Below are positions 30,772-31,075 of a stretch of DNA of 64,000 nucleotides, one piece after another. The stretch lies in NCBI RefSeq assembly GCF_988243305.1, contig NZ_OZ547136.1. The stretch is one strand, 5' to 3'. Each line of letters begins with the position of its first letter. Position 1 is the first letter of the stretch. The notes beneath the pieces were generated by a model that saw only the letters and a program-made list of their open reading frames with translations, ran no database searches and was not told the origin of the DNA. Position numbers and translations under genes: made by a program.

Positions 30772-30788
30772 GGTTTATCGTTGGTTTA
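30772..30788 (+). promoter_or_regulatory. PhoP box of the mgtA promoter
   Basis: Direct repeat GGTTTA-TCGTT-GGTTTA followed about 15 bp later by a TATTAT -10-like hexamer. Confidence 0.75.
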
Positions 30789-30809
30789 GTTGCCAGCAGG
30801 TATTATATC

Positions 30810-31075
30810 GCCATAGATGCTACGAATATTATTGGATTCTCCTTATTATTTGCGGCGCTTTTTTCACTTACCGGAGGTTATATGGAACCTGATCCCACGC
30901 CTCTCCCTCGACGGAGATTAAAACTTTTCCGGTAAGCCCGTCTTTTCACGGCGTTACCGGATGCGTAAGGCCGTGACGTTTTAACGTCCCTGCTCAGCTT
31001 TATTACCTTCAGGTAAGGCTTCGCCACGCCTGAAGACATTTCTGTACTGTTTCAGACAGTGCGGAGGGACTCCTT
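30810..31075 (+). promoter_or_regulatory. mgtA 5' leader (Mg2+/proline-responsive attenuator region); bounds approximate
   Basis: Long untranslated leader between the PhoP-dependent promoter and the mgtA ATG containing mgtL; established for enterobacterial mgtA. Confidence 0.6.
30882..30935 (+). CDS. mgtL: mgtA leader peptide (proline-rich, 17 aa)
   Basis: [17 protein letters not shown] preceded by GGAGG RBS, inside the mgtA 5' leader. Confidence 0.85.

Follow-up and report, generated by a model that had tools for sequence, protein, structure and literature searches.

The mgtL-mgtA control region in a 64-kb stretch of Escherichia coli DNA has the layout of the characterised K-12 element

Analysis of a 64,000-nucleotide stretch of contig NZ_OZ547136.1 (hereafter the window) indicated that the region upstream of mgtA is very probably the mgtL-mgtA control region native to Escherichia coli, with two layers of control whose function is known from the literature on K-12 and Salmonella. 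Judged by its sequence, the element is an already known one, that of K-12: it has all the defining sequence features of the Rfam family RF01056, of an architecture I PhoP promoter and of the leader peptide MgtL, and nothing in the sequence speaks against this identity. The presence, geometry and conservation of the elements, the alternative pairing among them and their identity with K-12 were observed directly. The elements are as follows, in order along the window.

30772-30788, plus strand: PhoP box, a direct repeat of GGTTTA with TCGTT between the two copies, which stands in for a -35 element
30801-30806, plus strand: -10 hexamer TATTAT, exactly 12 nt 3′ of the PhoP box (spacer 30789-30800)
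30813-31075, plus strand: 5′ leader RNA of mgtA, 263 nt from the inferred start, 100% identical to K-12 MG1655
30815-30859, plus strand: 5′-proximal hairpin, a ViennaRNA minimum-free-energy prediction, poorly conserved between genera
30867-30936, plus strand: stem-loop A, a three-way junction (outer helix 30867-30877/30926-30936, with hairpins 30883-30897 and 30902-30917 inside it)
30882-30935, plus strand: mgtL leader ORF, 17 codons of which four encode proline, ATG at 30882, TAA at 30933-30935
30928-30961, plus strand: alternative stem-loop C (low Mg2+, ON), 30928-30935 with 30954-30961 and 30938-30941 with 30948-30951
30948-30974, plus strand: stem-loop B (high-Mg2+, OFF conformation), from the Rfam alignment and the fold
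30986-31070, plus strand: predicted long-range helix, GUCCCU (30986-30991) with AGGGAC (31065-31070), present in the minimum-free-energy fold and in the alifold consensus
31007-31035, plus strand: conserved hairpin in the 3′ half of the leader, from the ViennaRNA fold and RNAalifold of 10 sequences
31076-33772, plus strand: mgtA, the regulated gene, encoding an Mg2+-importing P-type ATPase of 898 amino acids (RefSeq annotation)

Genomic comparison found the treR-mgtA intergenic stretch (381 nt) to be identical to that of E. coli K-12 MG1655 at 379 positions. Two bases differ, T for G at 30740 and C for T at 30793. They are located upstream of the inferred transcription start, and neither touches the PhoP hexamers, the -10 hexamer or the transcribed leader, in which every base is as in K-12. 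An earlier note on this DNA had described the regulatory region as intact, and the alignment bears this out, with no divergence from K-12 MG1655 that disrupts the PhoP box or mgtL. The spacer that contains 30793 varies freely among Escherichia, and the exact sequence of the window is found in many E. coli genomes. Megablast searching with the intergenic region matched 5,425 of 5,426 complete E. coli genomes; it was covered over at least 80% of its length in 5,423 of the 5,426 and was at least 99% identical in 4,185.

The flanking genes annotated by RefSeq are also arranged as in K-12 MG1655, with the divergent treR-treB-treC upstream and mgtA-ridA-pyrI-pyrB downstream. The K-12 locus (mgtL-mgtA, b4702/b4242, with the PhoP-dependent promoter P1) thus shares with the window the PhoP box, the -10 hexamer, the leader, mgtL and the gene order treR, mgtL-mgtA, ridA. 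It differs by the two upstream single-base changes, neither of which falls in a defined element, and by one amino acid of MgtA, which is identical to the K-12 protein at 897 of 898 residues, the sole change being V33A (alanine at position 33 here).

Related loci were collected by scanning one genome from each species for a sequence pattern, which yielded 27 loci. Eleven of them are enterobacterial, and all eleven were confirmed as mgtA leaders by Rfam with scores of 87-127 bits: Escherichia albertii, E. whittamii, Escherichia sp. E1V33, two divergent E. coli, two Citrobacter, Klebsiella indica, Yokenella, Enterobacteriaceae RIT691 and Enterobacter ENT03. The other 16 (Alphaproteobacteria, Planctomycetes, Anaerolineae and others) were set aside as probable chance matches to the 18 specified bases of the pattern. 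Ten loci together with the window made up the alignment used for pairing and covariation. The scan gave no match in Salmonella, which presumably differs from the search pattern within the 20-nt stretch at the start of mgtL; Salmonella was compared through its published PhoP box and leader length (PMC3335776).

The PhoP box at 30772-30788, GGTTTATCGTTGGTTTA, matches (T/G)GTTTA-N5-(T/G)GTTTA, the direct repeat with a 5-bp spacer that had been reported for this position. When both strands of the 64-kb window were searched for KGTTTA-N5-KGTTTA, this site was the sole match, with 0.02 matches expected by chance and any match at all in only two of 100 dinucleotide-preserving shuffles. The box is in direct orientation, on the same strand as mgtA, and overlaps the -35 position. 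Scanning of 30600-31200 for a sigma-70 consensus promoter with a good -35 element found none, as expected for an activator-dependent (PhoP) promoter that has no -35 element.

The -10 hexamer and the start site were placed by spacing and by analogy. The transcription start is inferred to be the A at 30813, 7 nt past the -10 hexamer, on the basis of the position of the hexamer and the length of the Salmonella leader. Counted from this start to the mgtA ATG at 31076, the leader would be 263 nt, in line with the long leader proposed earlier, as compared with 264 nt in Salmonella (PMC3335776). The limits of the interval that had been singled out, 30772-31075, are exact: it opens with the first base of the PhoP box and closes just before the start codon of mgtA.

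In its geometry, a single direct box located 12 nt from the -10 hexamer, the mgtA promoter of the window matches PhoP architecture I. Architecture I promoters, with class II-type activation, were defined with the footprinted mgtA promoter of Salmonella (PMC3335776; Zwir et al. 2012), where binding of PhoP-P and activation in low Mg2+ have been shown (PMC3335776), and binding of PhoP to the mgtA promoter of Shigella was found by EMSA and footprinting (PMC5775216). The promoter of Salmonella enterica mgtA agrees with the window in the orientation of its box and in the 12 nt that separate box and -10 hexamer. Over the 19-mer consisting of the box and one flanking base on each side, the window (TGGTTTATCGTTGGTTTAG) and the footprinted Salmonella site (TGGTTTATCGTTGGTTTAA) are identical at 18 of 19 positions, the mismatch being one flanking base. 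Comparison with the characterised leaders, which the earlier note had recommended as a check, gave an identical leader for K-12 and 18/19 identity with the published PhoP 19-mer for Salmonella, and both the geometry and the latter match are consistent with the PhoPQ control that it proposed.

Among the related loci, the PhoP box is identical in six Escherichia loci and matches at 12 of 12 positions in Citrobacter Awk4, Klebsiella indica and Enterobacter ENT03. At least 10 of the 12 positions are kept in 10 of the 11 enterobacterial loci, the exception being Citrobacter sp. NCU1, whose best box has nine, and a TATNAT hexamer was found 12 nt past the best box in all eleven.

The proline-rich 17-codon mgtL that had been read from the sequence is indeed present at 30882-30935, preceded by a Shine-Dalgarno sequence GGAGG (30873-30877) 4 nt upstream of its ATG. 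On identical DNA, RefSeq annotates this ORF as 'mgtA regulatory leader peptide MgtL' (WP_001387276.1). The N-terminus of MgtL is acidic and proline-rich (M-E/D-P-D-P-T-P), and the ORF of the window has these features of the family. An mgtL was found in all eleven related loci, in each case with 17 codons, a start of the form M-[E/D]-P-D-P-T-P-[L/H]-[P/S] and a terminal R, while the residues in the middle vary. Conservation of the N-terminal amino acids together with a length fixed at 17 codons points to selection on translation of mgtL. At 54 nt, mgtL is easily missed by automated ORF callers and should be annotated at 30882-30935.

Rfam analysis identified the leader as Magnesium-II (RF01056) at 30867-30982 on the plus strand, with 125.8 bits against a gathering threshold of 40, E = 1.7e-26 and a match over model positions 1-115 of 115; the match was repeated in a scan of the whole window. 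This full-length match, along with the RefSeq annotation of mgtL and mgtA, agrees with the earlier description of the region as well-known biology. Scanned by E-value threshold, 30000-32000 contained no Rfam family except RF01056 and nothing credible on the minus strand. The M-box or Magnesium-I element (RF00380, e.g. of Bacillus subtilis mgtE) is likewise an Mg2+-responsive 5′ leader of an Mg2+ transporter gene, and acts through an intrinsic terminator; it is not known to have a leader peptide. It is an unrelated RNA family, and the sole Rfam match in 30000-32000 is to RF01056.

These results leave practically no probability for the reading that the region resembles the element by chance or is a decayed remnant without function. 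Every base of the transcribed leader is shared with the functional K-12 sequence, a PhoP box expected only 0.02 times occurs once in the window, the Rfam match has the E-value given above, the mgtA ORF is full length and all parts are conserved across genera. Nothing was found in favour of chance or decay, and we regard that reading as already refuted.

The leader has the potential to fold in two mutually exclusive ways. In the first, stem-loops A and B form. Both the Rfam alignment and the minimum-free-energy fold place the Shine-Dalgarno sequence, start codon and stop codon of mgtL within stem-loop A, so that the whole ORF is nested in 30867-30936. In the second, stem-loop C arises from pairing between the 3′ arm of A, in which the mgtL stop codon is located, and the 5′ arm of B. 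The stop codon thus lies in the strand common to A and C: in A, the UAA (30933-30935) is paired with 30868-30870, and in C its partner is 30954-30956.

Both structures are conserved. Over the 11 aligned sequences, the A/B structure was 93.4% paired, compared with 35-50% in controls with slid partners; the outer helix of stem A reached 95.9% and stem B 94.5%. Five pairs of the A/B structure showed compensatory change, four of them in stem B, where four of the 10 pairs have changed on both sides, and neither the pairing nor the covariation was equalled in any of 500 shuffles. The core of stem C was 95% paired across genera, with most pairs invariant. All eleven related loci keep the alternative helices A/B and C, stem B with compensatory changes. 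The outer extension of C seen in a constrained fold (30918-30924/30978-30984) was only 59.7% paired across genera and was rejected as not conserved. The 5′-proximal hairpin at 30815-30859 is weakly supported as a real structure since this region is poorly conserved between genera.

Constrained folding was used to mimic the effect of ribosomes on the leader. When the proline codons were blocked along with the 5′ arm of A, as by a stalled ribosome, the predicted fold switched to stem-loop C, and when the stop-codon region was blocked, as by a terminating ribosome, B formed. A model of A/B versus C under the control of mgtL translation has been described for E. coli (PMC11552253), and the predicted folds reproduce its published logic, in which A/B is OFF and C is ON.

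How the two layers would operate in the window is taken from the K-12 and Salmonella literature, by analogy with which PhoP binding, the response to Mg2+ and proline and the role of Rho would apply here. In the first layer, PhoQ would sense low periplasmic Mg2+, and phosphorylated PhoP would bind the repeat at 30772-30788, in place of a -35 element, and activate transcription. The second layer would act on elongation within the leader of about 263 nt, where the strand that holds the mgtL stop codon has two possible partners, the 5′ arms of A and of B. With adequate cytoplasmic Mg2+ (and proline), ribosomes would complete mgtL, and the RNA would take up the A/B-type conformation, leading to a premature end of transcription near 49 nt upstream of mgtA, reportedly via Rho. 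At low Mg2+, ribosomes would stall or fall off at the acidic, proline-rich EPDPTP codons; this would free the 3′ arm of A, which would then form stem-loop C with the 5′ arm of B, and RNA polymerase would read into mgtA. Published work describes both halves of this scheme: when Mg2+ is adequate, complete translation of mgtL leaves a Rho-dependent terminator accessible, and when it is low, the ribosome is destabilised on the EPDP and proline codons, the RNA adopts another fold and transcription proceeds into mgtA (PMC11552253, PMC11282234, PMC12360218, the last a review of the mgtL-mgtA system). A response of conformation and expression to Mg2+ has been reported for the K-12 leader, identical to that of the window, and for Salmonella (PMC11552253, PMC11282234).

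The share of direct Mg2+ binding by the leader RNA is still debated (PMC11552253). The same element could be a riboswitch in which the RNA itself is the primary Mg2+ sensor, Mg2+ stabilising A/B, with translation of mgtL secondary. This agrees with the Rfam class of the leader, a riboswitch aptamer, with the conserved A/B and C pairings and with structural probing that reportedly shows Mg2+-dependent alternative structures (PMC11552253). However, newer work credits mainly the efficiency of mgtL translation, through its proline and acidic codons, bL31 and EttA (PMC11552253, PMC11282234), and the conservation of the N-terminal mgtL codons at the amino-acid level, with the 17-codon length fixed across genera, also goes against a secondary role for translation. 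The authors of the 2024 study call the sensing question still open (PMC11552253). On this evidence we consider the RNA unlikely to be the primary sensor, and favour control through the translation of mgtL.

How transcription ends in the leader was addressed by a scan for intrinsic terminators, which found none within the leader and one weak candidate at 30650-30666, inside treR. Classical attenuation by an intrinsic hairpin was rejected on account of the empty scan of the leader. The Mg2+/proline-sensing attenuation proposed in the earlier note is therefore upheld as regards control by mgtL translation, but it is not of the classical hairpin type, and termination is reported to be Rho-dependent. 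A sliding 40-nt count of C and G along the leader revealed no striking C-rich, G-poor stretch that would resemble a rut site.

Term-seq data for K-12 place an RNA 3′ end at 4467576, 49 nt upstream of mgtA (PMC7815308, supplement 3). This position corresponds to 31027 in the window and falls inside the 31007-31035 hairpin. The end has a Rho score of 1.56 and lies in a significant Rho termination region, its intrinsic-terminator score of 1.46 is below the threshold of 3.0, and treatment with bicyclomycin raised the reads downstream of it from 221 to 735 (PMC7815308). A second K-12 3′ end, at 4467490 (PMC7815308), corresponds to 30941, 6 nt past the mgtL stop codon.

Rho dependence is firmly established for the Salmonella leader and has been questioned once for E. 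coli (PMC12360218, PMC5499598). Loss of the transcript in the E. coli leader could be Rho-independent, arising from pausing with another factor or from RNase-mediated decay. ChIP-qPCR with the R66S mutant of Rho showed no effect of Rho at E. coli mgtA, with a termination score of 1.0 (PMC5499598), and the caveat recurs in a 2025 review, in whose words the mechanism 'may not be conserved in E. coli' (PMC12360218). The authors of the ChIP study themselves offered two readings, that termination in E. coli may be Rho-independent or that R66S has no effect on that site, and the second would leave room for a Rho-dependent mgtA terminator (PMC5499598). Against a Rho-independent mechanism also stand the bicyclomycin-sensitive region around the 3′ end 49 nt before mgtA (PMC7815308), the lack of an intrinsic terminator in the leader and later papers that give Rho-dependent termination for E. 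coli mgtA (PMC11552253, PMC11282234), one of which reports it along with destabilisation of the ribosome at the EPDP motif (PMC11282234). Taken together, a Rho-independent loss of transcript seems quite improbable, and termination through Rho is the preferred reading. As to Rho dependence and direct Mg2+ sensing, the window adds nothing beyond K-12, and neither question is specific to it.

Three further structures are predicted in the 3′ half of the leader. In the hairpin at 31007-31035, RNAalifold of 10 sequences found a UA-to-AU swap at 31009/31033. The long-range helix of GUCCCU with AGGGAC would cover the Shine-Dalgarno sequence of mgtA (GGAGGGA, 31063-31069) and would enclose a hairpin at 31042-31064. 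The two complementary motifs were found in all 11 enterobacterial leaders compared, and the Enterobacter leader, which is 46 nt shorter and has no intervening hairpin, keeps both of them. The helix has no covariation support, because both strands are nearly invariant. From these predictions one may speculate about a third layer, in which pairing of GUCCCU with the Shine-Dalgarno sequence gates the start of mgtA translation or couples ribosome loading to protection from Rho, although we rate such a layer as rather unlikely.

The mgtA leader of Salmonella belongs to the same Rfam family and shows the same alternative pairing logic of stem-loops A, B and C, with mgtL and a Rho-dependent terminator. 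The leader that precedes corA in E. coli and Salmonella, with its short ORF corL, is similar in having a three-way junction that contains this ORF, alternative structures (A/B versus C/D) and termination set by translation of corL (PMC11552253). It differs in that it belongs to another locus, with a constitutive promoter that is not PhoP-dependent, and in that corL begins with UUG and contains one proline that is conserved (PMC11552253).

The mgtA promoter and leader are among the best-studied examples of layered control in bacteria, combining a two-component promoter, a leader-peptide/RNA switch and conditional termination. The window carries the standard version of this system, and the strain would be expected to regulate MgtA like K-12.

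Two minus-strand ORFs overlap the leader, at 30878-31039 and 31009-31104. They have no annotation and no minus-strand Rfam match, and were taken to be mechanical ORFs. On a larger scale, the window is collinear with positions 4436000-4496539 of the K-12 genome at 97-99% identity, apart from a few insertions and deletions and one diverged stretch.

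The nearly invariant motif GUCCCU at 30986-30991 is complementary to AGGGAC at 31065-31070, in the Shine-Dalgarno region of mgtA, and this predicted pairing was retained in all ten folded leaders. In Enterobacter sp. ENT03, whose leader is shorter, both complementary motifs can likewise be seen. Because both sides are conserved, the putative helix is without covariation. A small hairpin was also predicted at 30975-30988, the 3′ arm of which is GUCC, a stretch shared with the GUCCCU motif; compensatory changes in this hairpin were found in Yokenella, as read off the leader sequences by eye.

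The control region varies in several other genomes. In E. coli GCU-H1 (locus L032, NZ_CP178558.1, 3501-4618), one of very few E. coli genomes of this kind, the mgtA region is missing. The match stops at query position 120, corresponding to about position 30817 of the window, and an IS1 element lies directly downstream of the mgtA promoter. The deletion has removed mgtL, mgtA, ridA, pyrI, pyrB and pyrL and truncated yjgH; GCU-H1 is a naturally occurring null strain for mgtA and pyrBI. In Citrobacter sp. NCU1 (locus L010, about 1500-1540, minus strand), the upstream PhoP half-site is absent and the top PhoP box score is 9/12. Comparison with Citrobacter sp. Awk4 revealed an 11-bp gap, equal to one repeat period, at the PhoP box; the downstream half-site, the -10 hexamer, mgtL and the leader are all intact.

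In Enterobacter sp. ENT03 (locus L009, 3055-3150, plus strand), the distance from the mgtL stop to the mgtA start is 94 nt versus 140 nt, i.e. 46 nt shorter, and the leader has no counterpart of the hairpin at 31007-31035, the site of the K-12 Term-seq 3′ end. In Klebsiella indica (locus L007, upstream of 7864, minus strand), the top PhoP box scores 12/12 and is followed by TATTAT 12 nt downstream; this box precedes the Rfam element by 224 nt, compared with about 78 nt in Escherichia, which implies that the 5′ end of the leader is extended by about 145 nt.

Comparison of the window with K-12 revealed insertions, losses and a diverged stretch. An insertion of 1.28 kb at 4199-5477 is located between paeA (ytfL) and msrA, and the following features were found in or beside it:

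4391-5371, plus strand, IS110-family transposase of 326 aa (PF01548 and PF02371), inside the insertion
4057-4114, minus strand, Rfam match to STnc450, next to the insertion

At 1512-1517, K-12 ytfI (K-12 4437495-4438721, about 1.2 kb) is missing and its flanks nearly abut. The K-12 toxin-antitoxin pair chpS-chpB (K-12 4448397-4449032) is likewise gone, with about 130 bp in its place at 12457-12586. In the yjgL region (39443-40422) divergence from K-12 is far above that of the surroundings: megablast gave 89.6% identity for one segment and left about 460 bp unmatched.

Rfam matches to repeats and small RNAs were as follows:

47530-47701, two adjacent naRNA4/REP-type repeats (RF02564, 77.9 and 82.2 bits)
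14499-14577 and 20740-20817, other naRNA4 matches
48535-48729, Ysr276 (annotated as antisense), strong match at 180 bits
583-705, strong match to the sRNA ES239 (154.5 bits)

By blast, the holC-pepA interval carries one additional tandem naRNA4/REP-type copy compared with K-12.

Similarity to K-12 stops at 59876, just past the tRNA gene leuX. The features of this end of the window are:

59742-59826, leuX, tRNA-Leu(CAA)
60026-61294, tyrosine integrase of 422 aa with the domains Arm-DNA-bind_3, Phage_int_M and Phage_integrase
61504-63153, ORF of 549 aa with no Pfam match

The stretch 59742-64000 holds a leuX-integrated island, distinct from the K-12 element.
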